A DNA stretch of 32,000 nt, from positions 138,218-170,217 of the forward strand of contig CAWBJO010000009.1 of assembly GCA_963789175.1 (NCBI GenBank), given 5' to 3'. The notes under the pieces are model-generated. The model saw only the letters and a program-made list of their open reading frames with translations. It was not told the DNA's origin and did not search any database. The translations under genes were made by a program, and so were the position numbers. Shown one piece after another: positions 1 to 21,854 of the stretch (positions within the stretch are counted from its first letter, which is position 1; the number at the start of each line of letters is the position of its first letter). This DNA is from an uncultured Alphaproteobacteria bacterium. Lineage in GTDB: Bacteria > Pseudomonadota > Alphaproteobacteria > Rhizobiales > Aestuariivirgaceae.

Positions 1-21
1 AGCGCACCGCAGACCTGACGC

Positions 22-156: not shown

Positions 157-173
157 CCCGCGATTCTAGGCGG

Positions 174-204: not shown

Positions 205-224
205 ACGTCATTCACGCAGCCACG

Positions 225-1804: not shown

Positions 1805-1999
1805 CGGGAACCCTGAATCGCGCCTGTCGGCTCATCGCCACATTGCCTCGCCGGGCGCGCGCCCAAGCGATATTTTCCGACAGGCGAAGCACGGATACGA
1901 CCTGCCCCTTGCAAAAATGTCGTTTCTGGTGTCTCAAATGACGCTTGCGTGCGGGGACGGCCCGACGCCCAAAACCCGAAGAGGACGGCTCACTTTCCC

Positions 2000-2995: not shown

Positions 2996-3013
2996 ACGGG
3001 TTCGACTCGTGAA

Positions 3014-3047
3014 AGCGGGGACGGACCGTCGACGATCCGTCCCCGCT
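3014..3047. terminator. perfect 12-bp inverted repeat between convergent genes (bidirectional terminator candidate)
   Basis: AGCGGGGACGGA (3014-3025), 10-nt loop, TCCGTCCCCGCT (3036-3047). It lies 19 nt after the regulator stop codon. The minus-strand version is followed by TTTCAC. Confidence 0.5.
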
Positions 3048-3310
3048 GACAGGATGCGCATCCGCGACCGGGGGCAATATGCAGACGGCACCCCATCAAT
3101 TGGGTTGGGCAGCGAAAATGGATGACGGTCCCGGTTCCCGATGCTGCGATCGCAACTTACTTTCCTATAAATCAAGTGCGTCCGAAAAGTAACAAAAGTT
3201 TTTGTTAGTTGGCGATGGTTTTCGAACATCACCGTCAACGTTCCGCCAACGCCGACAACCGGCCGCACGCGCCACGCACTGCAACCGCATGCTAGCCAAG
3301 GTCGTGAGCG

Positions 3311-4690: not shown

Positions 4691-5351
4691 CGTCCGGCTC
4701 TGAGATGCAATAGCCCAGGCCGCGGATGGTCCTCAACAGGTCGACGCCGAGCTTCTTGCGGAGCCGGCCGACGAATACCTCGATGGTGTTCGAGTCGCGG
4801 TCGAAATCCTGGTCGTAGAGATGCTCGACAAGCTCGGTGCGCGACACGACGCGGCCCTTGTGCAGCATGAGATAGCTCAGGAGCCGGAACTCGAGGGAGG
4901 TGAGCTTGACGGCCTTGCCGTCGACCGTGACGCGGGCGCTCTTGGTGTCGAGCATGAGCGGTCCGCAGACGAACTCGCTCGAAGCCTGGCCGGCGCTGCG
5001 GCGCACGAGGGCGCGGATGCGGGCCAGGACTTCCTCCATGTGGAAGGGCTTGGAGACGTAGTCGTCGGCGCCAGCGTCGAAGCCCGCCACCTTGTCGCTC
5101 CAGCGATCGCGGGCGGTAAGGATGAGGACCGGGGTCTTGCGCCCGGCGCGCCGCCATTTCTCGAGAACGCTGACGCCGTCCATGACGGGAAGGCCGATGT
5201 CGAGAACGATGGCATCGTACGGCTCGGTGTCGCCGAGATAGTGGCCTTCCTCGCCGTCCTTGGCCGTGTCGACCGCATAACCGGCGTCGGTGAATGCGGT
5301 CACCAGCTGCCGGTTCAGGTCCGGGTCATCCTCAACCACCAACAGTCGCAT
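4680..5351 (-). CDS. OmpR-family response regulator (receiver + winged-helix); FeuP-like
   Basis: MRLLVVEDD...AIVLDIGLPVMDG (phospho-acceptor Asp), LILTARD, KPF. C-terminal trans_reg_C pattern LTSLEFRLLSYLM...TIEVFVGRLRKKL...IRGLGY. It resembles rhizobial FeuP from memory, so the symbol is left blank. Confidence 0.9.
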   Translation of the reverse strand: MRLLVVEDDPDLNRQLVTAFTDAGYAVDTAKDGEEGHYLGDTEPYDAIVLDIGLPVMDGVSVLEKWRRAGRKTPVLILTARDRWSDKVAGFDAGADDYVSKPFHMEEVLARIRALVRRSAGQASSEFVCGPLMLDTKSARVTVDGKAVKLTSLEFRLLSYLMLHKGRVVSRTELVEHLYDQDFDRDSNTIEVFVGRLRKKLGVDLLRTIRGLGYCISEPDDAV

Positions 5352-5391: not shown

Positions 5392-5877
5392 TCACTCACC
5401 CAGGACCTGGGCGGTGCGCGCATCGACGAGGACGCGGATCACCCGCCCGTCGACGCGCATCTTCACAGCATACATGGGGTTGGGGCCCTTCAAAAGCTTG
5501 ACGCCGAGAGCACGGCCGCCGGGCATATAGCTCAGTGCCTGGGTCAGCGCCTCGGTCGGACCGATGAGTCCGCCGCCGCCGCCATAGACGGGCGGCGGAT
5601 ATTCCTCTTCTTCGCCGAACGGCGGAGGTTCATAAGGCGGAGGCGGACGGATGCGCTGGCGCTTCTTGCGCTTGAGGACCTGGCCGCCCCAGAAGCCCTC
5701 GTCGCCCTGTGCATAAACACCGCCGCCGGGATCGATGCTGATCTCCCTGCCCTGCCCCTTCTTGCCGTTCGAGCAGACGCCGCCCGCACACGGGCCGGCA
5801 ATCACCTCGGCGCCCGCAAGCGAGGCGCCGAAGAGGATAGCCACCACGGCAGAGAGGATTACATTCTTATTCATCAT
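5392..5877 (-). CDS. periplasmic PepSY-domain protein with Pro-rich linker (FeuN-like position upstream of the two-component pair)
   Basis: Start set at the tandem ATG ATG (5877/5874), giving signal peptide MMNKNVILSAVVAILFGASLAGAEV. Pro/Glu-rich middle PPPPYEPPPFGEEEEYPPPVYGGGGG. PepSY-like C-terminus ALGVKLLKGPNPMYAVKMRVDGRVIRVLVDARTAQVLG. Confidence 0.7.
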   Translation of the reverse strand: MMNKNVILSAVVAILFGASLAGAEVIAGPCAGGVCSNGKKGQGREISIDPGGGVYAQGDEGFWGGQVLKRKKRQRIRPPPPYEPPPFGEEEEYPPPVYGGGGGLIGPTEALTQALSYMPGGRALGVKLLKGPNPMYAVKMRVDGRVIRVLVDARTAQVLGE

Positions 5878-5937
5878 ACGATCTCGAAGCGAGCCAAACT
5901 TATGAAAAAGCACATGAACGAAGCATGAATGTCAGAT

Positions 5938-6408
5938 TCAGCGGCGGGCGCGCGACTTGCTTCGACGGGGGCGCCCTTCGTTCCGCGCCCACAGGCGCCC
6001 CGCGATCTTCTCGACGCTACGGCCGCCGATATAGCCGCCGAGACCGATCGCGAGCAGGTTCCACACGGCATCCGGCAGCAGCGCAAGACGCGGCTCGAAG
6101 TCGAGCCTTCGGCCGGTAACCATCTCAGTACATGGGATCACGAAACCGAAAAGCAACAGGAAAGCCATGAGGAGGAACATGAGGGCCGGGCGCCAGCTGC
6201 GCGTCAGCCGGCTCTCGGCGATCTCAGCCAGGACGATGTCGCGCCGCCCCCGGACGAGCGTGCGACGATCCTGGCGCGAGCGAGGCGAGGCGGGGGCGAC
6301 GATCCGCCGCCCGCCTTTCAGGTTCAAGAGAACGCGTGCAAGGTTTGCGAGCCGGCCCGACGCCGCACCCGCCAGACGCGTGAACAGGAAGGCGAGGATC
6401 GCCGACAT
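5938..6408 (-). CDS. GTA-type holin (GTA_holin_3TM-like), 156 aa
   Basis: Internal ATG at 6408-6406 overlaps the lysozyme stop (TGATG). Three hydrophobic segments: MSAILAFLFTRLAGAA, WRPALMFLLMAFLLLFGFVIP, VWNLLAIGLGGYIGG. There is a highly basic C-terminal tail. The AE...SWRPA motif before the central TM matches my memory of the 3TM GTA holin family. The 49 codons upstream in the track ORF are Arg-rich and lie inside the lysozyme gene. Confidence 0.65.
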   Translation of the reverse strand: MSAILAFLFTRLAGAASGRLANLARVLLNLKGGRRIVAPASPRSRQDRRTLVRGRRDIVLAEIAESRLTRSWRPALMFLLMAFLLLFGFVIPCTEMVTGRRLDFEPRLALLPDAVWNLLAIGLGGYIGGRSVEKIAGRLWARNEGRPRRSKSRARR

Positions 6409-7127
6409 CAGATGCCCTCGCGCGCCGACTTGATGCACCGTTCGCGGATGATCCACACCGCCGCGACGACGACGACGGCGGCCGCCAGGCGGGGAAGGCT
6501 GGCGGCCACGTCGGGTCCGATCCACGCGCCGATCTCCTCCGATGCGGATGCGCAAGCCGCGACGGTCGCCGAAACCATCGCGGCGATGTTGGTGGTGCTG
6601 CGGCCGAAACTCTTCCCCGCGAGCGGCGCGACCGGGCGAAGGGCGACTTCGGGCTCGACTTCGCGCACCGGTTCGGCTTCACCGACCGGCTCCATGAACA
6701 GGGCAGCCTCGGCGGCGCGGCGGCGCACGAGACCGGGAAGGACGGTGCCGCCGGCGTTCACCCACAACGCAAGGCGGCGCGGGACGGAGGCGAACGCGCC
6801 GCGATTGACGGCGGCGAGCACGGACGATTTGCGGAAGGCGGGAAGCCCGACATTGTAGGCGAACGACACCAGCGCCGAGAACTGATTGTCGTTGAGCGTC
6901 GCGCGCAACGACGTGCGGACGCCGGCGGCGAAGCGCGCCAGGTCGCGCACCAGAATGCGGCGGGCCTCGGCGCGCGTGACCCGCATGCCGGCCGCCACCG
7001 CCGGCGGCCCCGCCCTGCCCGTATGTCCGTACCCTACGGTCAACACACCGACCGGATCGCGGTATGCCGCGGCACGGAAGCCCTCGAACTCGCAGACGAG
7101 CTTCACGCCTCGACCATTCATATTCAT
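6408..7127 (-). CDS. GH24 phage-type lysozyme (endolysin) with C-terminal hydrophobic anchor
   Basis: EFEGFRAAAYRDPVGVLTVGYGHT gives the Glu-x8-Asp-x5-Thr spacing of T4-lysozyme-type GH24. NQFSALVSFAYNVG is also typical. Start chosen at ATG 7127 (AAAGGA 9 nt upstream). The track start at 7160 is a TTG overlapping the upstream stop and remains possible. Confidence 0.85.
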   Translation of the reverse strand: MNMNGRGVKLVCEFEGFRAAAYRDPVGVLTVGYGHTGRAGPPAVAAGMRVTRAEARRILVRDLARFAAGVRTSLRATLNDNQFSALVSFAYNVGLPAFRKSSVLAAVNRGAFASVPRRLALWVNAGGTVLPGLVRRRAAEAALFMEPVGEAEPVREVEPEVALRPVAPLAGKSFGRSTTNIAAMVSATVAACASASEEIGAWIGPDVAASLPRLAAAVVVVAAVWIIRERCIKSAREGI

Positions 7128-7156
7128 CCCAGTCATTCCTTTCGTTTGATAGAGCG

Positions 7157-7399
7157 TCAACGAGACGCGAAAATATCGATCGCCTGACCGGCGAGGCCGC
7201 CGAGCGACGCGGAAACGGCGATGAGCACGGCAAGCAGGCGCGATCCGCCGCGCAAGGAAACGAGCGCGTCGCGGATGTCGCGCACGTCGGCGCGCAGCAC
7301 CCGCATCTCCTCCTCGACGGCCAGCAGCCCGACGCGCAGCTCACCGACTTCGCGGTCGATGGAAGCCTTGACGCTCCGGCTGGTCATGCGCGGGCTCAT
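7157..7399 (-). CDS. 80-aa coiled-coil protein with C-terminal TM helix (unknown; lysis or tail-fibre accessory candidate)
   Basis: ATG 7399-7397 overlaps the DUF2793 stop (ATGA). Heptad-like charged region IDREVGELRVGLLAVEEEMRVLRADVRDIRDALVSL, then TM LLAVLIAVSASLGGLAGQAI. No family recognised. Confidence 0.5.
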   Translation of the reverse strand: MSPRMTSRSVKASIDREVGELRVGLLAVEEEMRVLRADVRDIRDALVSLRGGSRLLAVLIAVSASLGGLAGQAIDIFASR

Positions 7400-8736
7400 G
7401 GAGCGAGCCGCTCACCGGCGCGGCACGCCATGCAGCCGACGGAAACACCGCGCCCGGACATGCCTTCGCTCTTCGCGATATCGGCGCCGAAAGCCATCGA
7501 TACGGCACCGGCGAGGGAACGCCGGCCGCCATCCATCTGCCAGCTTCGTCCGTCAGCGGAATAAAAGAAGTCGGCATGCAACCCGTCGGGGCCGATAAAG
7601 ACGCCGAGCCACACCGGCTCGGTGCCGACGACGAGCGAGCCCGATTCCTTGACCACACCGGCCGCGGAGGCCGTGCAGCGCCGCCATGTGGAGGCGAGGT
7701 TCGAATCGTACTCCCACCACGCACCGTTTGCGGGCGAGGAGGAAAGGCCGGCATCGTGCAGGCCGGCCCGGGCAATGAAGCGATCGGGCCAGGCCGACAG
7801 CGTCTCCACGGCGAGGCGCGTCAGGAACAGCACGGCGCCGGATCCCAGCTCCAGCGTGCCGACGGCGCTTCCCAAGCGCGCGGCACCCGCCGCCGTCGTA
7901 CCGGTGAGAACCCTCCAAGCCTGGCCGCCGGTTTCGACACCGGCGTCCGCTCCGCTTTGCGACGCAGCGAGCAGGCCGTGCGACAGCGTGTCGGCGAAGA
8001 CGTCGAACGATGCGCGGAAGCGCCCGCAGGACACATCGACCCAGCACCCGTCCGTCGCATCGTAGGCGAGAGCGATGGTATCGCCCGGCATGAGGACACG
8101 CGGCAGCCGATCGGCGAAGCGGAAGCGGTTGCCGGACGACGAGGCCTCGGACTGGTGAACGAGGATCAGGAGGTTGCCGCCGGCATCCGCCGTCGCGTTG
8201 GTCAGGAGCGCGAGCCGGGTCGGCGCACCGCCCGCAAGACCCGTGACGATGAGGGGAGCGGGCGGCGCGAAGCGGATGTGGGTCGCACGCGAAGGATGGT
8301 CCCCGTTCCATCCCGGCCAATCGAAGTCGTTCCAGGTTCCGGAGGGATCGCAGGTGACCGCGTTGCCCAGTTCGCAGGAGGAATGGAGCGGCGTGGTGCG
8401 GTGCGCCTCCTCCCAGCCGATCGCCGTGCGGATGAGATCGCGCCGCTCGTCGGCGATCCAGGCGCGCCAGCCGTCGCGCGGCGTGAGGAAGGACCAAGCG
8501 CCGTCGGCACGAGCGGCGATCGTGCCGTCACGGCCAGCCCAGTCGCCGCCGGCGCCGGCGGGAACGAGGTAGCGCTCGCCATCGACCGGTGCGGGCGGCG
8601 GCATCGCCGTCGTGCGCGACATGCAGGCGAGGTGAACGAGGGCGTCGAGGCGCAGAAGCGACTCGTTGAGCGTCACGTGCTTCTGCGCCTGGCTGGCGGC
8701 GAGAAAAGGAAGTGCGAGGTTCGGGGTTTCAGACAT
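7396..8736 (-). CDS. DUF2793-domain tail-fibre-like protein, 446 aa
   Basis: Internal ATG at 8736-8734. N-terminus MSETPNLALPFLAASQAQKHVTLNESLLRLDALV...PPPAPVDGERYLVPAGAGGDWAGRDGTIAA..GAWSF..PRDGWRAW is the DUF2793 signature as I remember it. The start overlaps the g15 stop (ATGTCTGA). The 113 upstream codons in the track ORF lie inside g15 in another frame. Confidence 0.8.
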   Translation of the reverse strand: MSETPNLALPFLAASQAQKHVTLNESLLRLDALVHLACMSRTTAMPPPAPVDGERYLVPAGAGGDWAGRDGTIAARADGAWSFLTPRDGWRAWIADERRDLIRTAIGWEEAHRTTPLHSSCELGNAVTCDPSGTWNDFDWPGWNGDHPSRATHIRFAPPAPLIVTGLAGGAPTRLALLTNATADAGGNLLILVHQSEASSSGNRFRFADRLPRVLMPGDTIALAYDATDGCWVDVSCGRFRASFDVFADTLSHGLLAASQSGADAGVETGGQAWRVLTGTTAAGAARLGSAVGTLELGSGAVLFLTRLAVETLSAWPDRFIARAGLHDAGLSSSPANGAWWEYDSNLASTWRRCTASAAGVVKESGSLVVGTEPVWLGVFIGPDGLHADFFYSADGRSWQMDGGRRSLAGAVSMAFGADIAKSEGMSGRGVSVGCMACRAGERLAP

Positions 8737-12517: not shown

Positions 12518-12961
12518 TCATCCGGCCTTGAAGCGGTAGACGTATGCCAGGCGGCGGCGCCACCACGCCGCGAGCGGGATCTCGCAGACGGCGGCACCAC
12601 TCTGGGCGTGGATCATAGTGCGATCGCTCGCCGCGATGCCGGCGTGGCGGGCCGGAAAGCTCGAGCGCCACCGGAAGAGCAGCACCTCCCCGCCGAAGAG
12701 GCTTCGGTGATCGACCGGAACCAGGTGGCGCGCGGCCGCATCGGCGAGAAGCTCGAAGCCGCCTGATTCCGCCCAGGTCGCCGCGTAGGGCGGCGGGTTT
12801 TCCGGCTCGGCGCCGAAGAGGTCGCGATAGACGCCGCGCACGAGACCGAGGCAATCGGCGCCGACGCCGCGAACCGATGCCTGGTGGCGATAGGGCGTGC
12901 CGATCCAGGCCCGCGCGGCGGCGACGACCCGCCGGGAGAGCTCGCGCTCGCTATCGTGCAT
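12518..12961 (-). CDS. NlpC/P60 cell-wall peptidase (RcGTA g14 homologue)
   Basis: WIGTPYRHQASVRGVGADCLGLVRGVY contains the catalytic Cys. A downstream His lies in RHAGIAASDRTMIHAQ. ATG at 12961 overlaps g13 by 11 nt. Its stop abuts the g15 ATG (TGAATG). Confidence 0.85.
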   Translation of the reverse strand: MHDSERELSRRVVAAARAWIGTPYRHQASVRGVGADCLGLVRGVYRDLFGAEPENPPPYAATWAESGGFELLADAAARHLVPVDHRSLFGGEVLLFRWRSSFPARHAGIAASDRTMIHAQSGAAVCEIPLAAWWRRRLAYVYRFKAG

Positions 12962-13820
12962 CGTTCCCCGTCGCGTAGGAGAGCACGAAATCGTTGCCGG
13001 GCATGTGCGGGAAGCCGCGAAAATTTGCGGCGTTGGCAAACTTGGCGCGGCAGGTCGAGAACTGCTTGTCGCATCCGGCGACGACCGTGAAGCCGTCGCC
13101 CGGCACGATCAGCGCCATCGCCGGTTGCCAGAGTTCGAAGACGTCGCGGTCCTGATCGCGGCGATGGGTGAGGATCTCGACGCCGGCGCCGGCGTTGGCG
13201 CCATCGATCCAAGTCAGCCGGCCGCGTGCGAACCAGCCGTCGGCGAACGCGCCGAGGCCGTCGGCCGCGAACCGCGATGGCGAAGCGACCATCGATACCG
13301 TCCCGCCGCCGCAGAACGCCGGAGCGGCGACAGCGACGCCGCAACGCGCATCGCCGAGCTCGGCATCGCAGCCATACTGATAGAGCCGGCCTTGCGGGCG
13401 CGACAGCGCGTGGGCCAGACCGCGCACCTCGGCGACGAACGCCGCACCATCGCGCGCGATCTCGCCGATGGTGCCGGTGCGCATCAGCAGGCGCTGATCG
13501 AGGTCGCGCCAGTTGACGAGCCAGACCTCGAGTGTGGCGTCGTCGAAGCGGCCCGCCGCGAGATCGGAGTCCGACAGGCGGTCGGAGCGCAGGGCGCCGG
13601 CGATCTCGAGATTGTCGACGCCGAGGCCGAGCGAGGCCTGCATCTCGCTTGCCGTGAAGCCCGCCGAGGCCTCGTAGCGTAGACCGTCGACCACCAGGTC
13701 GCGGTCGTGATCGGTGAAGCCGAGAACGCGGCCCGTCGCATCGGAGAGCTTCCAACACCAGCAGAGGGTGGTGGCGCCGCCGTCGAGATGCTCCTGGAGC
13801 CCCGCAGGTAGTACCCTCAT
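12951..13820 (-). CDS. DUF2163 + phage BR0599 domain protein, tail hub (RcGTA g13 homologue)
   Basis: LQEHLDGGATTLCWCWKL...GFTDHDRDL and C-terminal CDKQFSTCRAKFANAANFRGFPHMPG signatures. ATGA overlap with g12. Confidence 0.8.
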   Translation of the reverse strand: MRVLPAGLQEHLDGGATTLCWCWKLSDATGRVLGFTDHDRDLVVDGLRYEASAGFTASEMQASLGLGVDNLEIAGALRSDRLSDSDLAAGRFDDATLEVWLVNWRDLDQRLLMRTGTIGEIARDGAAFVAEVRGLAHALSRPQGRLYQYGCDAELGDARCGVAVAAPAFCGGGTVSMVASPSRFAADGLGAFADGWFARGRLTWIDGANAGAGVEILTHRRDQDRDVFELWQPAMALIVPGDGFTVVAGCDKQFSTCRAKFANAANFRGFPHMPGNDFVLSYATGNDAR

Positions 13821-14461
13821 ACGCGCAGCTCGACGATCGGAATGTCGGGGACCTCGCCGGCGCCGAAGCCGACGAGGCCGATCTCGAGGAAGTCGGTATC
13901 GAAGCGCACCGGCGTGTCGAACTCGAAGCCGGCCGTAACCGCCTGACCCGCGGCCGGAACGGAACTCGGAAAGAAGGTCACGAGGCCGGTTGCCGCATCG
14001 AGCACGTAGTGCTCATCCGCGGTCCTGCGAACCCCCGCGACGGCGACGACTACGGTCTCGCTCAGCGGCTTGCGGACCGGGCGGACATAGGCCGACGGTC
14101 CGACGCCATAGATCTTGCGCAGCTCGAAGGCCGCGGTCGCGCCGTCGCCCATGCCGAGCTCCTGATCGGCGTCGGAAACGGAGCGGCCCGACCGGCAGGA
14201 CCTGAAGTCGGCATGGTCGCGCCAGCGAAAACCATAGAGGCGGCCGCGGCGTTCCTCGAAGAAGGCGACGACGGCATGGATGTCGTCGAGAGACCGCACG
14301 CCGTAGCCGGCATTGTAACGTCGCCTCGCATGGGCCCAGCGCGAGTTGCGCTCCTCGAAACCCGAGCCAAGCGCGACGATCTCGGTGCGGCGTTCCGGTC
14401 CACCGCGGGCACCGCGCGAGATGGCGGACGGGAAGCGCACCTCGTGAAAGGCGGGACTCAT
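13817..14461 (-). CDS. DUF2460 distal tail protein (RcGTA g12 homologue)
   Basis: FHEVRFPSAISRGARGGPERRTEIVALGSGFEERNSRWAHARRRY matches the DUF2460/TIGR02217 pattern. ATGA overlap with g11. Confidence 0.8.
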   Translation of the reverse strand: MSPAFHEVRFPSAISRGARGGPERRTEIVALGSGFEERNSRWAHARRRYNAGYGVRSLDDIHAVVAFFEERRGRLYGFRWRDHADFRSCRSGRSVSDADQELGMGDGATAAFELRKIYGVGPSAYVRPVRKPLSETVVVAVAGVRRTADEHYVLDAATGLVTFFPSSVPAAGQAVTAGFEFDTPVRFDTDFLEIGLVGFGAGEVPDIPIVELRV

Positions 14462-15045
14462 CGGTTGCGTTGCCCCCGCTCGACGGCGCGAGCGAGCGCG
14501 GCGGCGATCTGCTGCTCGGAGCGACGGAAGCTCTCGGCATCGCTTGTCGTGATGTTCATGGTGACGGATACCGACGATGCGGCACCGGCCCGCACGCCGA
14601 GTTTGCCGTCGCTCGAGCGTGCCAGCGGCAGGATGGCCTCGGCTCCCTTCTCGCCCATGAGTCCCATGCCGGAATTCAGCGGAAACAATGTGGGGCCGTT
14701 GACGATGCCGCCCGACGCGAAGGCACGGATGCGTCCGGCGCTCACCACATTGCCTTTTGCATTGGCGAGGACGGCACCGAGAGCGCCGCCGAACAGATTG
14801 CCGGCGGCGTCGGACAGCGGCCGCAGGGCGGCCGCGAGAGCACGACTGCCAAGGCTCTGCACGAGCGATCGCAGGACGCCCGACAATTTGCGCCCGTCGG
14901 CCGCCGCGGCAAGGAAGGCGCCGCTCATGGCGGCGCCGAAGTTTTCGCCCAGCCGCGTCAGACCGGCGAGATCGCGGCTCAGCCCGTCAGTCGGGATTTT
15001 GGAGAACGCATGCTCGGTATCGGGCATCGATCTAGCCTCGGCCAT
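14458..15045 (-). CDS. short tail tape measure protein (RcGTA g11 homologue), 195 aa
   Basis: Position between chaperones and distal tail protein. Ala/Gly/Leu-rich helical sequence FGAAMSGAFLAAAADGRKLSGVLRSLVQSLGSRALAAALRPL is typical of GTA tape measures. ATG 15045 overlaps g10.1 by 14 nt. An alternative ATG lies at 15027. Confidence 0.75.
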   Translation of the reverse strand: MAEARSMPDTEHAFSKIPTDGLSRDLAGLTRLGENFGAAMSGAFLAAAADGRKLSGVLRSLVQSLGSRALAAALRPLSDAAGNLFGGALGAVLANAKGNVVSAGRIRAFASGGIVNGPTLFPLNSGMGLMGEKGAEAILPLARSSDGKLGVRAGAASSVSVTMNITTSDAESFRRSEQQIAAALARAVERGQRNR

Positions 15046-15226
15046 CGGGGAAACGCATCATCAGGGCTTCGAGCGCCGTGCGTTCGAGACGGGCGGCCGG
15101 AGCGTGGCAGTAGGCCGACAGCGCGGCCTCGAGCTCGCGCGGCGTCATGGCCCAGAAATCGCGGGGCGGCAGGCGCAGGAGGCCGAGACCGAGCTGCATC
15201 ACACGGCGCCAGGGAAATGCCGGCAC
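15032..15226 (-). CDS. rcc01693-family tail assembly chaperone (RcGTA g10.1 homologue), 64 aa
   Basis: FPWRRVMQLGLGLLRLPPRDFWAMTPRELEAAL matches the conserved FPW...GLG.L.L.P..FW.MTPREL pattern. GTG at 15226 lies 2 nt after the g10 stop, with an alternative ATG at 15199. The frame is -1 relative to g10 and stays open through all of g10. Confidence 0.65.
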   Translation of the reverse strand: MPAFPWRRVMQLGLGLLRLPPRDFWAMTPRELEAALSAYCHAPAARLERTALEALMMRFPDGRG

Positions 15227-15228
15227 GG

Positions 15229-15558
15229 TCACTCGCGTCCCGGCTCCGGCGCGAACGTCGCGGTCAGGAGGCGCATGACGATCTCGACGTAACCCGGGGC
15301 GCCGCGCGGCGATACGAGGCGTGCGACCTCGTCGTCGCCAACGTCGTTGCCGCCACCCCGCAGGCCGGCGCCGAGCACGCGGATGGCGTCGCGGGCACCG
15401 ATGCGCCCTGATTCGAACTTCTCGGCAAGAGCGAGGATGTCGGCGCCGCCGAAGGCCGATTCGAGCTCGGCCAGGGCCCCGAGCGTCAGACACAGGCGCC
15501 ATGTGCGGCCGCCGAGCTCGGCCGCGATCTCGCCGCGATGCAGGTTCGCCACCGTCAC
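15229..15558 (-). CDS. GTA-family tail assembly chaperone (RcGTA g10 homologue)
   Basis: HRGEIAAELGGRTWRLCLTLGALAELESAFGGADILALAEKFESGRIGARDAIRVLGAGLRGGG is the conserved GTA g10 pattern. GTG start overlaps the g9 stop (GTGA). Confidence 0.7.
   Translation of the reverse strand: MTVANLHRGEIAAELGGRTWRLCLTLGALAELESAFGGADILALAEKFESGRIGARDAIRVLGAGLRGGGNDVGDDEVARLVSPRGAPGYVEIVMRLLTATFAPEPGRE
15292..15298 (-). other. candidate -1 slippery heptamer C-CCG-GGT in g10 (formal X-XXY-YYZ pattern)
   Basis: On the minus strand g10 reads GCC CCG GGT. A -1 slip would enter the g10.1 frame, which has no stop from here to 15032. G/C-only heptamers are atypical, hence the low confidence. Confidence 0.2.
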
Positions 15559-15968
15559 AGGACCTCGAAGGTGAGCTCACCGGCGGATTCGAGCGCCAAC
15601 TCGAAGGTGATTTCGCCATCATGGGACGCCGCGTATTCGAGGGCGGCAACCTGGAACGGACCGGTGATGCGTCCGAAATCGGGGACCACCACCTGCCAGT
15701 CGCGAATGGCGCCCGAGAAGAACACGTCGCGCACGGCGGCATCCGACTGCGCATCGCAGAAGACGCCGGCACCGCGGATGCTCGCCTGGCGCACGCCGGC
15801 GCCCTCGAGCAGCGTCCGCCAAGCGCCGGCCGATTCCTGGTGCGTGGCGTCGACCGTCTGGGCATTGAGGGCAAGGCCATGGGTGCGAAGACCCCCGACG
15901 GTCGCGAAGGCGCCGCCCGGCTCGGCGGCCAACTTCAACAACAGGTCGCGGCCGCGTTGTGCCGTCAT
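15555..15968 (-). CDS. major tail (tube) protein (RcGTA g9 homologue), 137 aa
   Basis: Internal ATG at 15968 (ATGA overlap with g8). The sequence LLLKLAAEPGGAFATVGGLRTHGLALNAQTVDATHQESAGAWRTLLEGAGVRQASIRGAGVF...EITFELALESAGELTF matches the GTA/TP901-1-type major tail pattern. Confidence 0.8.
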   Translation of the reverse strand: MTAQRGRDLLLKLAAEPGGAFATVGGLRTHGLALNAQTVDATHQESAGAWRTLLEGAGVRQASIRGAGVFCDAQSDAAVRDVFFSGAIRDWQVVVPDFGRITGPFQVAALEYAASHDGEITFELALESAGELTFEVL

Positions 15969-16393
15969 GTCTCCTCCCTCGGATCCTGGGTCACGATGCG
16001 CAGACGCATGAGACCGTGATAGCGTTCGTTCTCCAGCTCGTGGACCACCGTCCAGAAGACCGGCCGCACCGTGACGACGCGATGCGGCTCGGCATCGAGG
16101 CCGTCGGTCGCGAGCAGCGCGTCGATCGCCGCGATGGCGTCGAGCGCGAGCTTGCGGCCGTGTCCGGCGGTCCACACGTGCAGGACCGCCATGTGCTCGT
16201 GACCACGGCTCGTCTGGGTGCTCCAGTCGCGCGTCTCGACTTCGCCCACCATCGCGAATGGAAGCGGGCCGTCGGCCGGAACGTTGTCGTAGACGCGGCC
16301 GGCCAGGATGGCGGCGACGCCGGGATCGCCGAGCAGCCGGCGGCGCAGCGCCGTCTGGACGGCAAGCGTCGCGTTCACAAGCGTCGCGTTCAT
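15965..16393 (-). CDS. DUF3168 tail terminator protein (RcGTA g8 homologue), 142 aa
   Basis: Internal ATG at 16393 (ATGA overlap with g7). LRRRLLGDPGVAAILAGRVYDNVPADGPLPFAMVGEVETRDWST...HEHMAVLHVWT fits the DUF3168 pattern. Confidence 0.75.
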   Translation of the reverse strand: MNATLVNATLAVQTALRRRLLGDPGVAAILAGRVYDNVPADGPLPFAMVGEVETRDWSTQTSRGHEHMAVLHVWTAGHGRKLALDAIAAIDALLATDGLDAEPHRVVTVRPVFWTVVHELENERYHGLMRLRIVTQDPREET

Positions 16394-16713
16394 GGGCCGA
16401 CGACCTCGCTGCAGTAGCAGATGGACCATCGCCGCCGCGCCGTGCCGGGAAACACGGCGACGATGTCGAACACCCGTCCCGACGCCGCAAAGCGCATGGC
16501 GGGCGCGAGGTCGGCGCGGTAGCGCAGGCGGACGCGATGGGTGAGCCTGGAGCGCATCGCCGCCGCGACGGGACTTTCGCCGCCCGACATCGCCTCGACG
16601 TTCGCCCAGACGGAGTCGCGCAGCCGCCAGGCCACCTCGCGCCCGCCAGAGTCGTTCCACACGGACTCCGGCGCCTCGAGCGCCAGGCGCTGGTTCAAGT
16701 CGGCGATCCTCAT
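16390..16713 (-). CDS. head-tail stopper / head-closure protein (SPP1 gp16-like; RcGTA g7 homologue), 107 aa
   Basis: Internal ATG at 16713 (ATGA overlap with g6). LTHRVRLRYRADLAPAMRFAASGRVFDIVAV...RRRWSICYCSE matches the conserved C-terminal pattern of this family. Confidence 0.75.
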   Translation of the reverse strand: MRIADLNQRLALEAPESVWNDSGGREVAWRLRDSVWANVEAMSGGESPVAAAMRSRLTHRVRLRYRADLAPAMRFAASGRVFDIVAVFPGTARRRWSICYCSEVVGP

Positions 16714-17267
16714 GCCAAGCGGACCGGCAGATAGGAGGAGACGAGCGAGGCCACGTGCGGTCCCGCCGCCGCTTCGCGGTTCTCGTACCAGGCGGCGACG
16801 AGCGCGCACACGGCATGGCGCAGGGTCGGCGGCACGTCGACCGGTGCGGAGCCGAAGCCGGCCCGGAAGGTCACCTCGATACCGCCACGCTCACGTCCCG
16901 GCCGCGGCCACATGCGATCGCGGCGCCTGACCAGCTCCGCCGGACGCTGCGCGTTGTCGAGATAGTAGTGGGCAGGATCGACGCGTTGGCCTTCGTCGTC
17001 CTCGCCCCACACCATGAGCTCGAGGATGCCGGCGACCGGCCAGCGCGGCAGCGCAACGGATGCAACTGCCGGCCAGGCGTCGAGCGACAGCCGCCATGTC
17101 TGGTCGATGAGGGCGAGGCCGGTGAGGAGCTCGACCTGCTCGCGGGCGGAAGCCACGAGCGAAGCGACGAGCTCGTCCTCATGGTCGCCATCGAGCCTCA
17201 GCCACGCCTTCGCATCGGCAAGCGTCACGGGTTCCGCCGCCGGCGGACCGGTCAGGATCAAAGTCAT
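16710..17267 (-). CDS. gp6-like head-tail connector / adaptor (RcGTA g6 homologue)
   Basis: EPVTLADAKAWLRLDGDHEDELVASLVASAREQVELLTGLALIDQTWRLSLDAWP is the classical phage gp6-like connector N-terminus. ATG 17267 with GGAAGA upstream. Confidence 0.8.
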   Translation of the reverse strand: MTLILTGPPAAEPVTLADAKAWLRLDGDHEDELVASLVASAREQVELLTGLALIDQTWRLSLDAWPAVASVALPRWPVAGILELMVWGEDDEGQRVDPAHYYLDNAQRPAELVRRRDRMWPRPGRERGGIEVTFRAGFGSAPVDVPPTLRHAVCALVAAWYENREAAAGPHVASLVSSYLPVRLA

Positions 17268-17283
17268 GTCGATGGTCTTCCGA

Positions 17284-18537
17284 TCAGGCGGCGATCTTCA
17301 GAAGCTTCGCGGCTTCGAAGTTCTGCACGCCGCCGCCGACGCGCTTCGTCGTGTAGAAGAGCACGTAGGGCTTGGCGGAATAGGGATCGCGGAGGATGCG
17401 CACGCCGAGACGGTCGACGATGAGATAAAAGCTGCGGAAGTCGCCGAAGGCCAGCGGAAACGCATCGGGCGCGATGGACGGCATGGCTTCGGCTTCGACG
17501 ATGGGAAAGCCGAGGAGCGATGCCGGCGCGCCGGCCGCGGCGGCCGGCTGCCAGAGATAGTCGCCGTCGGCATTCTTGATCTTGCGGATCTCGTTCTGGG
17601 TGCGGCGGTTCATGACAAAGCTGGCGCCCTGGCGGTAGCCCGCCTTCACCGCATATATGATGTTGAGAAGGACATCGGCCGGCGCGGCGGGTGCGAAACC
17701 CGCGGCGGCGCCGGTCGCCACGTAACCGACGTTGCTCCAGGTCCAGCCGCCGTCGGCAGTCTTCGGATAGTTGAGGAAGCCGCGCGGGCGCGCCACGCCG
17801 TCACCATTGACGAAGGCCTCGGTCTCCTGCTCGGCGAAGGCCGCCTGCACCTCTTCGGCAATCCAGCGGTCGATGTCGACGGCCGCGTCGTCGAGGAGCG
17901 TCTGGGTGGCGGCAGGCATGGCGTAGATCTCCATGGCCGGAAACTGAAGCTCGGCGAGCGACGGGCCGGCGGTCTCCGGCCTGGCGGCCGTCTCGCCCAC
18001 CCAACCGGTGGCTGCGCCGGCGATGGCGAAAGGCTTCTTGTAGACGGCGGCGGAGATGTGGCGGACGGTCGCGACCGCGCGCAGCGGCGAAGCCTGGCGC
18101 AGGAGCCGGCCGATCTCCGTCTCGGTCTCTTCGGGAACGAGGTAGCCGCCGTCGGGGCCCGAACCGGAGGTGAGGCTCTTCGCCTCGAGATCGACCAGGC
18201 CCGTCGCCTCGCCCCGGCGCATATAAAGCGCGAAGGCCTGCTTGTGCTCGCTCACCTCGCAAGAGCCATGCGGCGAGCCGCGGTCGAGCGGCGGGCGGCG
18301 GCCCTTGATGGCGAGCTCGTCGAGCCGGGACTTGTGCTCGGCGACGGCGCGGTTCAGCCGCTCCACCTTTTCCTCGGTCACGACGTCGGCGGTCATGCGA
18401 CGCTCGATCTCCTGAAGCCGGCGGTCGTTCGCCTCCTTGAAAGCCTCGAAGCTGTGCATGAAGCCGCCATAGGCCGCGTCGATCTCGGCATGGTCCGGCA
18501 CGACCTTGGTTTCGAGCGGCAGGTTCAATTCTTTCAT
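17284..18537 (-). CDS. HK97-fold major capsid protein with N-terminal delta/scaffold domain (RcGTA g5 homologue), 417 aa
   Basis: Internal ATG at 18537 (ATGA overlap with the protease stop). Coiled-coil N-terminal region FKEANDRRLQEIERRM...VERLNRAVAEHKSRLDEL. GPDGGYLVPEE motif and C-terminal FYTTKRVGGGV are typical of HK97-family capsids. Confidence 0.9.
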   Translation of the reverse strand: MKELNLPLETKVVPDHAEIDAAYGGFMHSFEAFKEANDRRLQEIERRMTADVVTEEKVERLNRAVAEHKSRLDELAIKGRRPPLDRGSPHGSCEVSEHKQAFALYMRRGEATGLVDLEAKSLTSGSGPDGGYLVPEETETEIGRLLRQASPLRAVATVRHISAAVYKKPFAIAGAATGWVGETAARPETAGPSLAELQFPAMEIYAMPAATQTLLDDAAVDIDRWIAEEVQAAFAEQETEAFVNGDGVARPRGFLNYPKTADGGWTWSNVGYVATGAAAGFAPAAPADVLLNIIYAVKAGYRQGASFVMNRRTQNEIRKIKNADGDYLWQPAAAAGAPASLLGFPIVEAEAMPSIAPDAFPLAFGDFRSFYLIVDRLGVRILRDPYSAKPYVLFYTTKRVGGGVQNFEAAKLLKIAA

Positions 18538-18992
18538 CTTTTCCTCGCTTTGCTGAAGACGTCGTCGGGGCCGGGACGGAGCACGGGCCGGGCGACCCGG
18601 GCAGAGCCCTGCATGGGGAAGGTCACGAGCGAGATTTCCCAGAGGTCGATGCTCGCAAGCTCGCGGATGCCGGCTGTGCGGCGGTGGTTGGCGGCCAGGG
18701 TTCGAAATCCGATGGACAGTCCGTCGACGGCGCCGTCGCAGAGCAGCGCGGCGATGTCGCGAACGCGGGCCGACCCCAGGGACAGGCGCCCCTCGGCGAA
18801 CAGGCCGCGCGCATCCTCGACGAGCCGCGTCCACACGCCGATCGGCTCGCCATGATCGTGCTGGAACAGCATGCGCACGTCGGCCGCAGGCCGCCGGCGG
18901 AGGCATGCCGCAAAGGCGCCGGGCAGCACGAGGTCGCCGACGCCGTCGACGATGCCGAACCGGCTCGCATATCCGCAAATGGACAGAGTCAC
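18534..18992 (-). CDS. HK97-family prohead protease (RcGTA g4 homologue), 152 aa
   Basis: GTG at 18992-18990, 5 nt after the portal TAG. ICGYASRFGIVDGVGDLVLPGAF, MLFQHD..PIGVW, DGLSIGF and LWEISLVTFP are the S78 protease motifs. The rest of the 544-aa track ORF overlaps the portal gene in another frame and is not coding. Confidence 0.85.
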   Translation of the reverse strand: MTLSICGYASRFGIVDGVGDLVLPGAFAACLRRRPAADVRMLFQHDHGEPIGVWTRLVEDARGLFAEGRLSLGSARVRDIAALLCDGAVDGLSIGFRTLAANHRRTAGIRELASIDLWEISLVTFPMQGSARVARPVLRPGPDDVFSKARKR

Positions 18993-18997
18993 CGAAC

Positions 18998-20209
18998 CTA
19001 CAGCCGGTCGCCGCCCGGAACCGGCGCGTAGCCGATCGCCTGGCGCTTCTCGTTCAAGGTCAGGAAGCTCGCCTTCTCGACGCGGCTCCACAGCGCTTCG
19101 CGCTCGGTCGACAATGCCTCGATACCGTCCATATCCGGCGCGAGGACGAGTCCGGACCCGAATGCCGGGCCGAGCCAGCGCGCCATCGCCCGCGCGGTGC
19201 GGTTGACGAGCGGGAGGATCGTCTGCCGCCAGAAGGTGCGGTTGGCCTCGGCATAGTTCGCGTAGGTGTTGTCGCCGGGAATGCCGAGCAGCATGGGCGG
19301 CACGCCGAAAGCGAGGGCGATGTCGCGCGCGGCGGCATGCTTGGCCTCGATGTGCTCCATGTCCTTGGGACTCAGAGCCATCTCCTTCCAGTCGAGGCCG
19401 CCTTCGAGGAGGAGCGGCCGGCCGGCGTTGACGGCGCCCTGGTAGGTTTGCTCGAGCTCGCGCTTCAACCGTGCGAACTGGCCCTCGCTCAGGTTCTCGC
19501 TGCCCGGCGGTCCGCGATAGACGAGCGCGCCGGAGGGCCTGGCGCTGTTGTCCAACAGCGCCTTGTTCCAGGCCGCCGCCTCGTTGTGGATGTCGACACT
19601 CGCGGCGGCGGGCGCGAAGGGCGAAAGACCGTAATGATCGCTGACGGGATCGAAGAGCCGCAGGTGAAGGATGGGCTCGACGTCGTTCGACGCGTCCTGC
19701 CGGTAGCGCACGACTCGACCGGAGACCGAATATTCGTAGGCGTCCGGCCAGCCGTCCGGCCCCGGCACGACCTTCATCCGATCGGAGCGGAGCACGTGCA
19801 GCTCGCGGACCGTGCCTTTCACCGCGACCGCCTCGGCATAGGCGTTGCCGGTGACGAGCAGCTGCCCATAGAGAGCCTCGCTCCAGCTCTGGCCGTCGGC
19901 ATGGGCGTTCGGGCAGCCGATGAGGTCGAGCAGCGGATGGGCGCCATGCTCTCGCCGCCCCTCGAAGAGCAGCCAGGGAACGGACGCCGCGGCTTCGGCG
20001 ATCATGCGCACGCAACGATAGCCCACCGGATTGGCGGCGAAGCCCTCGCGCGCGAAGGCGGTCGCGTTGCGGGCCGACCAGCGCGGCCGGCGGCGGGCCT
20101 CGAGCGCGACGAGCGGCACCGGCATTCCGTTCTTCGTCTCGACGCGCGGAACGGCGGACGAAAGCCAACCCTTCATGCGCGACACGACTGCCATCATTCC
20201 AAGCTCCAT
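18998..20209 (-). CDS. HK97-family portal protein (RcGTA g3 homologue), 403 aa
   Basis: Start ATG 20209 is preceded by CCGGAGGGCCTG and overlaps the TerL stop (TGATG). An alternative ATG lies at 20176 (MKGWL). YRCVRMIAEAAASVPW, LLVTGNAY, NEAAAWNKALLDN and FGVPPMLLGIPGDNTYANY are typical portal blocks. Confidence 0.9.
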   Translation of the reverse strand: MELGMMAVVSRMKGWLSSAVPRVETKNGMPVPLVALEARRRPRWSARNATAFAREGFAANPVGYRCVRMIAEAAASVPWLLFEGRREHGAHPLLDLIGCPNAHADGQSWSEALYGQLLVTGNAYAEAVAVKGTVRELHVLRSDRMKVVPGPDGWPDAYEYSVSGRVVRYRQDASNDVEPILHLRLFDPVSDHYGLSPFAPAAASVDIHNEAAAWNKALLDNSARPSGALVYRGPPGSENLSEGQFARLKRELEQTYQGAVNAGRPLLLEGGLDWKEMALSPKDMEHIEAKHAAARDIALAFGVPPMLLGIPGDNTYANYAEANRTFWRQTILPLVNRTARAMARWLGPAFGSGLVLAPDMDGIEALSTEREALWSRVEKASFLTLNEKRQAIGYAPVPGGDRL

Positions 20210-21534
20210 CAGGCCCTCCGGATGCGCGGGTCGCCGGACTGACGCAACAGCATCAGCTCGGTGAGCGCCCACACAAGGGCGTCGAGGCGGTCCGGGCTGG
20301 CGCCGCCGGCGGCATCGGAACCGAAGGCGCACATCTCGTCCTCGAGGCGGGGGAAGCTGCCGACATGCGAGATGCGGTGCTGCTCATAGAGCGTGGCGAC
20401 GGGCTCGGCGCGCAGATGCTTGCCGCGACTGGCGCGCACGGCGCGCACCGGCAGCGCGGCATCTACAGTGCGCAGCACGTTCGCCACCAGGTCGCCGCCC
20501 TGGTTGACCTCGGCGACGACGAGGTTGGCATCGAGGTCGTGATAGAGCTTCACCGCGGCGCGCGCCCAGGTGAGCGGCGCCACGCCCTGCATGGTGCGGT
20601 CGGCGAGAACATAGCCGCGGCCATCCTCGCCGAGTCCGGCGGCGACGATGCCGCAGGCGTCGGCATCCTCCCCTGCCGTCACCGGCGGATCGATGGCGAC
20701 GACGATGCGCTGAAGCTCCGGGTGCTCGGCGACGCGCGTCGCGTCGATGACGGCGCGGGAGAAGAGCGCATTCGGATTGTCGTCGAGCACCTCGCCGTCG
20801 AGCTCCTGGCGGCCGAGGCGCGAGCCGCCATAGAGCGCGTTGAGGTCGGCAAGGAAGGTCGGGGCGAGATTGTCGGCATTGTCGAAGGTGCGGCTGCGCG
20901 TGACGTGCACGGAGGAATCGGCGAGAAGCTTGCGGATAAGCGGAATGGGACGCGGCGTCGTGGTCACGACCTGGCGGGGACGGCGGCCGAGCCGCAATCC
21001 AAACTGCAGCATGTCCCAGGTCTCGTTCGGATATCGCCACTTGGCGAGCTCGTCGCACCAGGCGAGATGGAACTGGGGTCCGCGCAGGAGCTCGGGCCGT
21101 TCGGCGGAAAAGAGCTGCGCCACGGAGCCGTTGGGAAACACCATCTCGCGGCGCGACGGGAAGTAGCGCGGCCGCTCGCGGTCGGCATGGACGGCGAGCA
21201 GCCCGGAGTTGCCTTCGATCATCACCGCCCTGCCCTCATGCAGGCTCGGAGCCACGAGCGCCACGCGCAGCTCGTGCCCGGCATAGCGCATGGCATAGCG
21301 AACCCACTCGGCGCCGGTGCGGGTCTTGCCGGCGCCGCGGCCGCCGAGCAGAAGCCAGACGCGCCAGTCGGCATGCGGCGCGAGCTGGTCTTCGCGAGCC
21401 CAGAGCGGCCAGTCATTGATCATCCACTCCCGGGCCGGCGGCGGCTGCGCCATCAGCCTGTCGATCGCCTCCCCGGCGAGGCCGCTCTCGGCACACAGAC
21501 GCAACAGCGTCTTCAAGTTTCGCCCTGAGGGCAT
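20209..21534 (-). CDS. terminase large subunit (RcGTA g2 homologue)
   Basis: Walker A WLLLGGRGAGKTRTGAEW, CDELAKW (Walker B-like), and a C-terminal nuclease region IDPPVTAGEDADACGIV...VAEVNQGGD. Start set at ATG 21534 (GAGAGGACG upstream). An alternative ATG 21423 (GGGAGTGG upstream) would shorten it by 37 aa. Confidence 0.9.
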   Translation of the reverse strand: MPSGRNLKTLLRLCAESGLAGEAIDRLMAQPPPAREWMINDWPLWAREDQLAPHADWRVWLLLGGRGAGKTRTGAEWVRYAMRYAGHELRVALVAPSLHEGRAVMIEGNSGLLAVHADRERPRYFPSRREMVFPNGSVAQLFSAERPELLRGPQFHLAWCDELAKWRYPNETWDMLQFGLRLGRRPRQVVTTTPRPIPLIRKLLADSSVHVTRSRTFDNADNLAPTFLADLNALYGGSRLGRQELDGEVLDDNPNALFSRAVIDATRVAEHPELQRIVVAIDPPVTAGEDADACGIVAAGLGEDGRGYVLADRTMQGVAPLTWARAAVKLYHDLDANLVVAEVNQGGDLVANVLRTVDAALPVRAVRASRGKHLRAEPVATLYEQHRISHVGSFPRLEDEMCAFGSDAAGGASPDRLDALVWALTELMLLRQSGDPRIRRA

Positions 21535-21811
21535 CGTCCTCTCGCTGCTGATCGGATCCCGACAGGCGCGTCTTGGGCGGCAGGGACGGACCGAACTGCC
21601 GATCAACCATGCGCGAGAGCGCCGTCAGGCTGCGCAAATAGCGGTCATAGACGTCGGGATCGTAGTGGTCGGGAAGCTTCGGCAGGAAATCGACTAATTT
21701 CCGGGCGAGATGGCGCAGGCAGGGGCGGATGTTCTCAGCCGGGTGGTCGTCGATCGACAACGCGATTTCGCCGTCCGGCAAGGCGCCGTCCGCGCGTTCA
21801 GGGTCTGACAT
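21413..21811 (-). CDS. candidate GTA g1 / small-terminase-position protein, 132 aa (no family recognised)
   Basis: First gene of the operon. The true ATG is at 21811 (the track start at 21814 is a TTG). The first roughly 90 aa have a natural composition (DHPAENIRPCLRHLARKLVDFLPKLPDHYDPDVYDRYLRSL). The last roughly 40 aa overlap TerL and are Arg/Gly/Ala-rich. Confidence 0.45.
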   Translation of the reverse strand: MSDPERADGALPDGEIALSIDDHPAENIRPCLRHLARKLVDFLPKLPDHYDPDVYDRYLRSLTALSRMVDRQFGPSLPPKTRLSGSDQQREDDALRAKLEDAVASVCRERPRRGGDRQADGAAAAGPGVDDQ

Positions 21812-21854
21812 CAAGGGGTTTTTCCGTCGTGCCCCAATTCAGGAGCATGCCTGA

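Follow-up and report, generated by a model that had tools for sequence, protein, structure and literature searches.

A tail-fibre gene and a putative lysis cassette follow g15 at the 3' end of an RcGTA-like cluster in an uncultured alphaproteobacterium

Do the fibre and lysis genes of a gene transfer agent (GTA) belong beside its head-tail genes? RcGTA, the agent found in Rhodobacter capsulatus, has a five-locus "genome" (Hynes et al. 2016; PMC5026251). In RcGTA, the fibre gene rcc00171 and the endolysin/holin genes rcc00555/rcc00556 lie at separate loci, whereas genes for these functions are contiguous in the DNA considered here, a stretch of 32,000 nucleotides (nt; the window) of contig CAWBJO010000009.1 from an uncultured Aestuariivirgaceae bacterium. 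Here, we analyse the four genes that follow g15 in an RcGTA-like head-tail cluster of this window. We consider it likely that an RcGTA-like late operon has these genes at its 3' end and retains the ancestral siphophage order of head, tail, baseplate (g12-g15), fibre and lysis cassette. This arrangement is a common, already published ancestral state and no new architecture. The genes in question are as follows.

8729-12517, minus strand: g15, host-specificity/baseplate megatron protein of 1262 amino acids (aa; Pfam)
7396-8736, minus strand: DUF2793 tail-fibre protein, 446 aa (Pfam, PHROGs and PDB match)
7157-7399, minus strand: orf80, 80 aa, with an N-terminal coiled-coil helix and a C-terminal transmembrane (TM) segment at about residues 52-74 (homologues and hydropathy)
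6408-7127, minus strand: GH24 endolysin, 239 aa from the ATG at 7127 (Pfam, PHROG and PDB match)
5938-6408, minus strand: GTA-type holin, 156 aa (Pfam and PHROG)

Several lines of evidence support these assignments. In searches with profile hidden Markov models (HMMs), the fibre protein matches DUF2793 with 100.7 bits (curated Pfam cut-off 27), the lysozyme matches Phage_lysozyme with 142.8 bits (cut-off 22.3) and the holin matches GTA_holin_3TM (PF11351) with 35.3 bits (cut-off 24.8). PHROGs agree, identifying the lysozyme as an endolysin (phrog_7, E 1e-54), the holin as a holin (phrog_3427, E 1e-14) and residues 1-113 of the DUF2793 protein as tail fibre. Thus, the reading of a first-pass annotation of this DNA, which had named a fibre, a small membrane protein, a lysozyme and a holin after g15, holds. 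So do the coupled same-strand junctions that it described, whose coordinates can be read directly. The ATG of the DUF2793 gene (8736-8734) lies inside the last codons of g15, whose TGA stop is at 8731-8729, giving the 8-nt overlap ATGTCTGA; the DUF2793 stop (7398-7396) and the orf80 start (7399-7397) share an ATGA; and the lysozyme stop (6410-6408) and the holin start (6408-6406) share one nucleotide in a TGATG. The window is GC rich (65-72%), and all its GTA-related genes are on the minus strand. The four downstream genes have a GC content of 0.68-0.71 and a third-position GC content (GC3) of 0.82-0.85, like the GTA cluster, and the flanking genes are slightly lower in GC. Because GC3 is like that of the GTA genes and orf80 has conserved homologues, we regard these open reading frames (ORFs) as real genes and not as chance ORFs of GC-rich DNA.

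How common this order is was addressed by a survey of g15 loci. From an alignment of g15, for which 7964 homologues were found, the best 80 species-representative loci were taken with 10 kb on each side. They come mostly from Hyphomicrobiales, with Rhodobacterales and a few others, and are a non-random sample, namely the loci whose g15 proteins are most like the query. The nearest g15 proteins are 52-57% identical to that of the window, except for one metagenome match at 98%. Downstream regions were analysed by phmmer, custom HMMs, clustering and a simple gene caller; this caller, which uses codon usage, missed the window's own lysozyme and holin, so that all survey counts of hydrolases and holins are lower bounds. 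In 54 of the 80 loci, a DUF2793 gene starts no more than a few hundred bases from where g15 stops; this is about three quarters of the loci whose downstream sequence extends for at least 1 kb. The identical 8-nt overlap (ATGNNTGA) occurs in 11 loci, and most other gaps between the two genes measure at most 40 nt. The same order is found in all nine loci with a Rhodobacterales-type flank (c9), which makes R. capsulatus an exception within its own order.

Lysis genes are also frequent at this position. The type of flank seen in the window, an OmpR-type response regulator (RR) and a histidine kinase (HK) of about 460 aa, usually preceded by a small PepSY protein, is present in 41 of the 80 loci, and 25 of these 41 Hyphomicrobiales-type loci have a peptidoglycan hydrolase between g15 and the flank (GH108 in 14, a CHAP+GH108 fusion in five, GH24 in three, CHAP in two and Amidase_2+SH3 in one). 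The five fusions, in Hyphomicrobium-type genomes, lie directly 3' of g15. Five more loci in which no flank is visible also have a hydrolase, and none was found in the nine Rhodobacterales-type loci. The hydrolase is followed by a GTA_holin_3TM-like gene in loci L003, L047, L041, L046, L053, L059 and L065. Because a second holin HMM included the c20 sequences that it recovered, its E-values for them are circular; the independent evidence is that of the first HMM (E 3e-5 to 5e-3) and a Pfam score of 24.4 bits for L046 (cut-off 24.8). Among genomes, the three nearest relatives, L003, L047 and L005, have the exact four-gene block with its 80-aa gene; the L005 contig ends inside the block. The block also recurs in three metagenome contigs (L083, L084 and L085), which run from g15 through DUF2793, orf80, Phage_lysozyme and GTA_holin_3TM to RR-HK, AraC and MTHFR; PepSY precedes RR-HK in L085, and L083 and L084 show RR-HK. 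Two of these contigs have a damaged g15 upstream of an intact DUF2793-orf80-lysozyme-holin series: in L084 it is broken into four ORFs (402-4326), and in L085 it is truncated at its N-terminus and abuts a portal fragment (3-3900). Either these GTAs are decaying with the fibre and lysis module kept, or these are assembly or frameshift errors.

These counts and the recurrence of the block in relatives do not bear out the first-pass view of a notable departure from the GTA paradigm, and synteny makes g15 followed by DUF2793 the majority arrangement, Rhodobacterales included. Nor is it novel: it is largely an already documented norm for the clade (PMC5721377, PMC11409702). Shakya, Soucy and Zhaxybayeva (2017; PMC5721377) examined 66 alphaproteobacterial genomes and place homologues of rcc00171 and rcc00555 at the 3' end of the "large clusters" of Rhizobiales and Rhodobacterales, taking this adjacency as evidence that the GTA genome was once a single locus. 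A 2024 paper in Applied and Environmental Microbiology (PMC11409702) likewise has rcc00171 and rcc00555 homologues adjoining the head-tail clusters LC1-LC5 of Methylobacterium nodulans. The window resembles these clusters in its order of head-tail cluster, tail fibre and endolysin, and the ancestral single-locus reading applies to both. It differs in that their assignment is based on rcc00555 homology, whereas a GH24 enzyme, an orf80 and a recognizable 3TM holin are not described in the cited parts.

Whether the whole block forms one transcription unit is a separate question. From g1 to the holin it extends over about 15.9 kb (21811 to 5938), close to the 16 kb that the first-pass annotation had given for a single unit. 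A consensus-based terminator scan of 8 kb returned five sites, compared with 4.0 ± 2.0 in shuffled sequences, none of them convincing, and folding of the 60-nt spacer that follows the holin is no stronger than that of its shuffled versions (z = 0.58). Given the tight or overlapping junctions and the lack of a terminator signal above chance, co-transcription from g1 to the holin is plausible, which is as far as we would take the proposed unit. Lysis genes that share a late transcript with structural genes, with timing set by the holin, are the standard design of lambda-type phages. Thus, lysis that had been described as "hard-wired" to structural gene expression corresponds to an ordinary phage late operon.

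The DUF2793 protein has a conserved attachment domain at its N-terminus (about residues 1-113), and the part C-terminal to it is specific to the lineage. Neither Pfam nor PHROGs match the last 330 residues, and close relatives differ in their distal domains: L083 has a pectate-lyase-like beta-helix there, L084 and L085 an SO2946-like_C domain. Residues 4-124 match PDB chain 8gtc_S (E 1e-16), and the solved assembly 8gtc contains a DUF2793 protein as nine chains, annotated "ribonuclease III". In tblastn searches of phage genomes, matches were confined to the first ~100 residues and sit in genes directly 3' of GTA_TIM/g15-like genes in phages of Rhodobacter, Dinoroseobacter, Paracoccus and others. 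On this evidence, both the order of g15 and fibre and the modular fibre, with conserved N-terminal docking and a variable distal part, are ancestral phage features. In phage RDJLphi1, too, a DUF2793 gene directly follows homologues of g12-g15, as reported by Hynes et al. (2016), and the DUF2793 protein is a proven component of RcGTA (PMC5026251). RcSaxon, vB_DshS-R4C, vB_PmaS-R3 and RcZahn, Cronusvirus-type or related Rhodobacterales siphophages, have the same series of g12-g15 homologues and DUF2793 gene; they differ from the window in that replication and regulation genes, and no lysis cassette, follow the fibre region (6 kb inspected), and in that their similarity to the window fibre covers only the N-terminal ~110 residues.

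The lysozyme is a GH24 enzyme, as first proposed, but shorter than the 250 aa then given. The 250-aa ORF opens at a TTG at 7160; the likely start is the ATG at 7127, with AAAGGA 9 nt upstream, which yields the 239-aa form that public gene calls also use and leaves a spacer of about 30 nt after orf80. Solved GH24 lysozymes match the enzyme with E-values down to 6e-28. Its catalytic domain occupies residues 1-150, and the Glu/Asp/Thr (E..D..T) catalytic motif can be read directly in CEFEGFRAAAYRDPVGVLTVGYGHT (EFEG...RDPVG...TVGYGHT). The protein has no N-terminal signal or signal-arrest-release (SAR) segment; towards the C-terminus, a transmembrane domain (TMD) at residues 209-227 (hydropathy 2.14) is followed by the cationic tail RERCIKSAREGI. 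A C-terminal TMD with a tail of the W-R-x-R type is also present in the GH24 enzymes of L003, L042 and L062 and in the GH108 enzyme of L046. M4Lys of phage BSPM4, LysAP of Acidovorax phage AP1 and the endolysin of Enc34 share this architecture, in which the catalytic domain is N-terminal, an N-terminal signal is absent and a single C-terminal TMD precedes a cluster of cationic residues, and LysAP is in addition paired with a holin and has no spanin. M4Lys (PMC7143992) and LysAP (PMC8879335) need the TMD for lysis. The catalytic domains of these enzymes differ from that of the window or are unrelated to it; the likeness is one of architecture. By analogy, we infer that the window endolysin would be tethered to the membrane and freed or activated upon holin triggering.

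The hydrolases of this post-g15 slot are non-homologous across Hyphomicrobiales (GH24, GH108, CHAP+GH108, CHAP+PG_binding_1 and Amidase_2+SH3), and nearly all end in a TM segment. The loci, within 0-6 kb after g15, are L004, L006-L008, L011, L012, L014, L015, L019, L025, L027, L034, L041, L042, L044-L046, L053, L054, L059, L060, L062, L065, L068, L074 and L076. This pattern looks like non-orthologous replacement that has kept a membrane-anchored design, and that endolysins of this slot nearly always carry a C-terminal membrane anchor may be a new point. A module of about 70 aa with two TM segments occurs as the C-terminus of GH108 and CHAP-GH108 enzymes, as a free ORF after the hydrolase, or alone after g15 (L042, 17085-17465; L076, 3997-4224 after g15; L054 and L068, about 2200-2470 after g15; L056, 22-234 after g15; and L013). 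Such a distribution points to a holin-like module, joined to the endolysin in some loci and split off in others.

The holin belongs to the GTA family, as had been claimed, but the three TM segments also attributed to it are less clear in its own sequence. Its match to GTA_holin_3TM covers only positions 43-123 of the 123-position profile, and Kyte-Doolittle analysis gives one strong segment (residues 75-93, 2.66) and two weak ones (3-21, 1.31; 109-127, 1.35). The label "3TM" rests on membership in the family and not on its own sequence. Two conserved motifs, WRP and GGYIGGRSxEK, are shared by the window holin with L003 and L047. The window holin had no tblastn match in 50,697 phage records. 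In agreement with the first-pass annotation, which had seen no spanin pair, the minus strand has no ORF of at least 25 aa with a lipobox from 5800 to 7600.

The remaining gene, orf80, itself matches no Pfam family and no PHROG. It carries a conserved RGGW motif and has homologues in the matching position in L003, L005 and L047. Its family has 31 representatives at 50% identity among 1.84 billion proteins (149 clusters at 90%) and comprises proteins of 68-80 aa with the consensus ERExGxLxAR...DVREIRDAL...RGGW followed by a C-terminal TM segment. A homologue lies directly upstream of a peptidoglycan hydrolase in L083, L084, L085 and L087, the last of these being a SleB-type Hydrolase_2, and one lies near a lysozyme on the prophage-like contig L089. 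The family thus sits upstream of, or close to, wall hydrolases in both GTA and prophage-like regions (L083, 6001-6216; L084, 6001-6234; L087, 5001-5219; L089, 3815-4030). Among 26 members, eight weakly match phrog_1193, annotated "hemolysin" (best E 2.9e-4), and two match a holin/anti-holin PHROG; Pfam matches of members are mostly to coiled-coil families. We take phrog_1193 to correspond to XhlA. These weak PHROG matches, suggestive but inconclusive, hint at a role in lysis, and we regard orf80 as a putative accessory membrane protein of the lysis cassette. A small unannotated family beside wall hydrolases may be a new point. An identity of orf80 as an i-spanin was rejected, as the TM segment is C-terminal and an o-spanin partner is lacking.

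The genes upstream of this block form an RcGTA-like head-tail cluster. Homologues of g2-g15 are collinear on the minus strand from 21606 to 8729 in the expected order, with every Pfam match above its cut-off; in g15 itself, Pfam recognizes GTA_TIM (429 bits), Phage-tail_3 (149 bits) and Rcc01698_C (94 bits).

12518..21814, minus strand: RcGTA-like head-tail cluster, g1(?)-g14 (Pfam)
21413-21814, minus strand: putative g1, a 133-aa ORF upstream of the terminase (position only)
20209-21606, minus strand: terminase (Pfam)
18998-20332, minus strand: portal (Pfam)
17284-18978, minus strand: capsid (Pfam)
14458-15045, minus strand: ORF in the tape-measure position (g11?), 195 aa (length and position)
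within 12518..21814, minus strand: connector, tail completion protein, GTA-gp10 and tail assembly chaperone (TAC; Pfam)
within 12518..21814, minus strand: DUF2460 (g12), hub protein (g13) and NlpC/P60 (g14; Pfam)

Neither the 133-aa ORF, a g1 candidate by its position, nor the ORF in the tape-measure position matched any Pfam family. The GH24 lysozyme of the window has matches (E 1e-9 to 1e-13) among ORFs in the g11 position of several Rhodobacterales-type clusters, those of L018, L020, L024, L026, L031, L035 and L040, at about 5.5-6.6 kb upstream of the g15 stop.

The block ends at a host flank, and a regulatory gene lies beyond the other end of the cluster.

5392-5877, minus strand: PepSY-domain secreted protein (Pfam)
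4680-5351, minus strand: OmpR-type RR (Pfam)
3311-4690, minus strand: HK (Pfam)
941-1804: MTHFR-like gene
28480-29343, minus strand: gafA homologue (DUF6456, 142 bits; Pfam), the presumed activator of the cluster

The PepSY-RR-HK flank marks the end of the GTA-associated block. Its PepSY gene, OmpR-family RR and HAMP_PhoQ-type HK are conserved same-strand neighbours of the GTA 3' end across Hyphomicrobiales, and the RR-HK pair shared by 41 of the 80 species loci identifies a conserved chromosomal site of the head-tail cluster, as expected under vertical inheritance. Transcription of the GTA operon could run on into this two-component system, across 60 nt that hold no terminator. As for the regulator, DUF6456 corresponds to GafA (PMC9638019, PMC9765227), and the mucR/sufE synteny of the window matches that published for Hyphomicrobiales gafA (PMC9638019). 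The neighbours of gafA are mucR (30126-30605, minus strand), a PAS_5 protein gene (29458-29997, minus strand) and sufE (28025-28483, plus strand). The gene lies about 6.7 kb upstream of the start of the GTA cluster, and among the host genes between them is one for a class A penicillin-binding protein (22591-24840, plus strand); this protein and a PG_binding_1/PG_binding_2 repeat protein (26688-27344, minus strand), also between gafA and the cluster, are probably ordinary host cell-wall proteins. The regulator is therefore nearby but outside the cassette. A metagenome scan with the GafA homologue found a single distant locus, L090, which keeps the series mucR-gafA-sufE-PG_binding-DUF1491, with the next 5 kb free of GTA genes. 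In the window, about 24 kb hold most of the known GTA "genome". To call the GTA a self-contained cassette, as the first-pass annotation did, is nevertheless an overstatement, since gafA stands outside the operon and no head-spike genes were identified in the window. Overall, the window resembles RcGTA in its head-tail families through g15, its DUF2793 fibre, its GTA_holin_3TM holin and its DUF6456 regulator, and differs in the contiguity of the fibre and lysis genes and in an endolysin of the GH24 type with a C-terminal TM anchor, preceded by an extra 80-aa membrane protein.

Several points weigh against reading these genes as the 3' end of a GTA late operon. The Pfam match of the holin is partial, and only one of its segments is strongly hydrophobic. 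An internal promoter is possible, with candidate sites in the 30-nt gap before the lysozyme and inside the DUF2793 gene, and the hydrolase genes of Kaistia and L042 are preceded by gaps of 184-226 nt, which points to independent hydrolase expression at least in those lineages. The holin is only 60 nt from the PepSY-RR-HK genes with no terminator between them, and the unit may run on past the holin. Finally, the GTAs of this organism and its close relatives are known from genes alone. The same slot invites the idea that orf80, the lysozyme and the holin are exchangeable and were inserted later, from a prophage, into a variable region between the fibre gene and the flank, perhaps with their own promoter. 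The variety of non-homologous hydrolases in this slot across lineages (GH24, GH108, CHAP+GH108, CHAP+PG_binding_1 and Amidase_2) is what such exchange would leave, and extra genes between DUF2793 and orf80 in L005, L047 and L083 suggest that the partner with which orf80 moves is the lysozyme and not the fibre. orf80 homologues in prophage-like contexts, and the 30-nt gap and own ribosome-binding site before the lysozyme, point the same way. Yet these genes have the same composition as the GTA cluster, block and flanks are conserved in relatives that have diverged to a g15 identity of about 50%, and the junctions are tight with no terminators seen. We therefore hold a late insertion to be possible though rather doubtful; it is also compatible with a late operon of ancestral order, as the slot could be ancestral and its contents replaced.

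It is very unlikely, in our judgement, that the four genes are mere neighbours that work apart from the GTA, as a separately expressed prophage remnant, cell-wall remodelling module or secretion module. Their function in Hyphomicrobiales is known from sequence alone, pairs of the holin/endolysin type also serve in non-lytic secretion, e.g., in the type 10 secretion system (PMC10109510), and the Caulobacter GTA lyses its producer by LypABC (PMC13236601), so that GTA lysis does not always depend on a holin and an endolysin. However, the 8-nt overlap of g15 and fibre and the conserved order make separate functions unlikely, DUF2793 is a proven part of RcGTA (PMC5026251), and the holin belongs to a family named for GTA release. 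That all of this is a prophage, defective or intact, for which a linked lysis module would be expected, is scarcely credible and was rejected: no integrase, repressor or replication genes were found among the ORFs scanned in the 32-kb window, the chromosomal position with its RR-HK flank is common to dozens of Hyphomicrobiales species, and the window has a gafA locus. Moreover, at 195 aa, the ORF in the tape-measure position is short, which we take from general knowledge to be a trait of RcGTA-like clusters. In favour of a prophage are the phage-like gene order and the prophage association of the M. nodulans large clusters with adjacent rcc00171 and rcc00555 homologues, as given in PMC11409702. 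The absence of integrase and replication genes, together with the conserved host flanks, argues for a GTA.

On the reading that we prefer, the 3' end of a late operon of ancestral order, we suggest the following course of events, in which we infer joint transcription, what GafA does, how the endolysin anchor is placed in the membrane and what it is for, and whatever part orf80 plays. Transcription would start upstream of g1, probably activated by the GafA homologue, and continue through g15 into the four downstream genes, and the overlapping stop and start codons would couple translation of g15 and fibre, of fibre and orf80, and of lysozyme and holin. The DUF2793 protein would dock on the baseplate via its N-terminal ~110 residues, leaving its variable C-terminal part to bind the recipient cell. 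The C-terminal TM anchor would keep the GH24 muramidase at the inner membrane until the 3TM-family holin, possibly modulated by the tail-anchored orf80, permeabilizes or depolarizes the membrane at a set time; the enzyme would then reach the murein, and the producer would lyse and release particles. The GTA of Caulobacter crescentus offers a comparison. It has an RcGTA-like core cluster that is expressed as one long transcript under a GafA-type factor (PMC11150451), with activation and anti-termination by GafYZ; it differs in having no holin-endolysin genes and in lysing by LypABC, a CARD-NLR-like system (PMC13236601), whereas the window has a classical cassette in cis.

Taking the survey and the window together, we tentatively propose, as an idea that may well prove wrong, that most GTAs of Hyphomicrobiales differ from RcGTA in having their release machinery in cis, in a slot of interchangeable non-homologous hydrolases with a C-terminal TM anchor and a W-R-x-R-type tail, the anchor part sometimes being split off as a two-TM protein of about 70 aa. 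In the clade of the window, the tethered GH24 enzyme would work with a 3TM holin and with the orf80 family of about 70-80 aa, which would be a new lysis component acting as a holin partner, an antiholin or an endolysin-releasing factor.

The locus adds one more well-preserved case, from a poorly sampled Hyphomicrobiales-like lineage, to the published view that RcGTA-like elements originated from a single phage-like locus, and it supports the published argument that the scattered "genome" of R. capsulatus is derived. In practice, annotation of Hyphomicrobiales GTAs should run past g15 to the PepSY/RR/HK flank and so capture the fibre and lysis genes. The interchangeable anchored hydrolases of one slot, the orf80 family and the nearby gafA are modestly new leads. 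With the question of GTA lysis recently reopened by LypABC of Caulobacter, the anchored endolysins of several families in one slot and the small membrane protein that adjoins them are leads on how GTA producers lyse outside Rhodobacterales.

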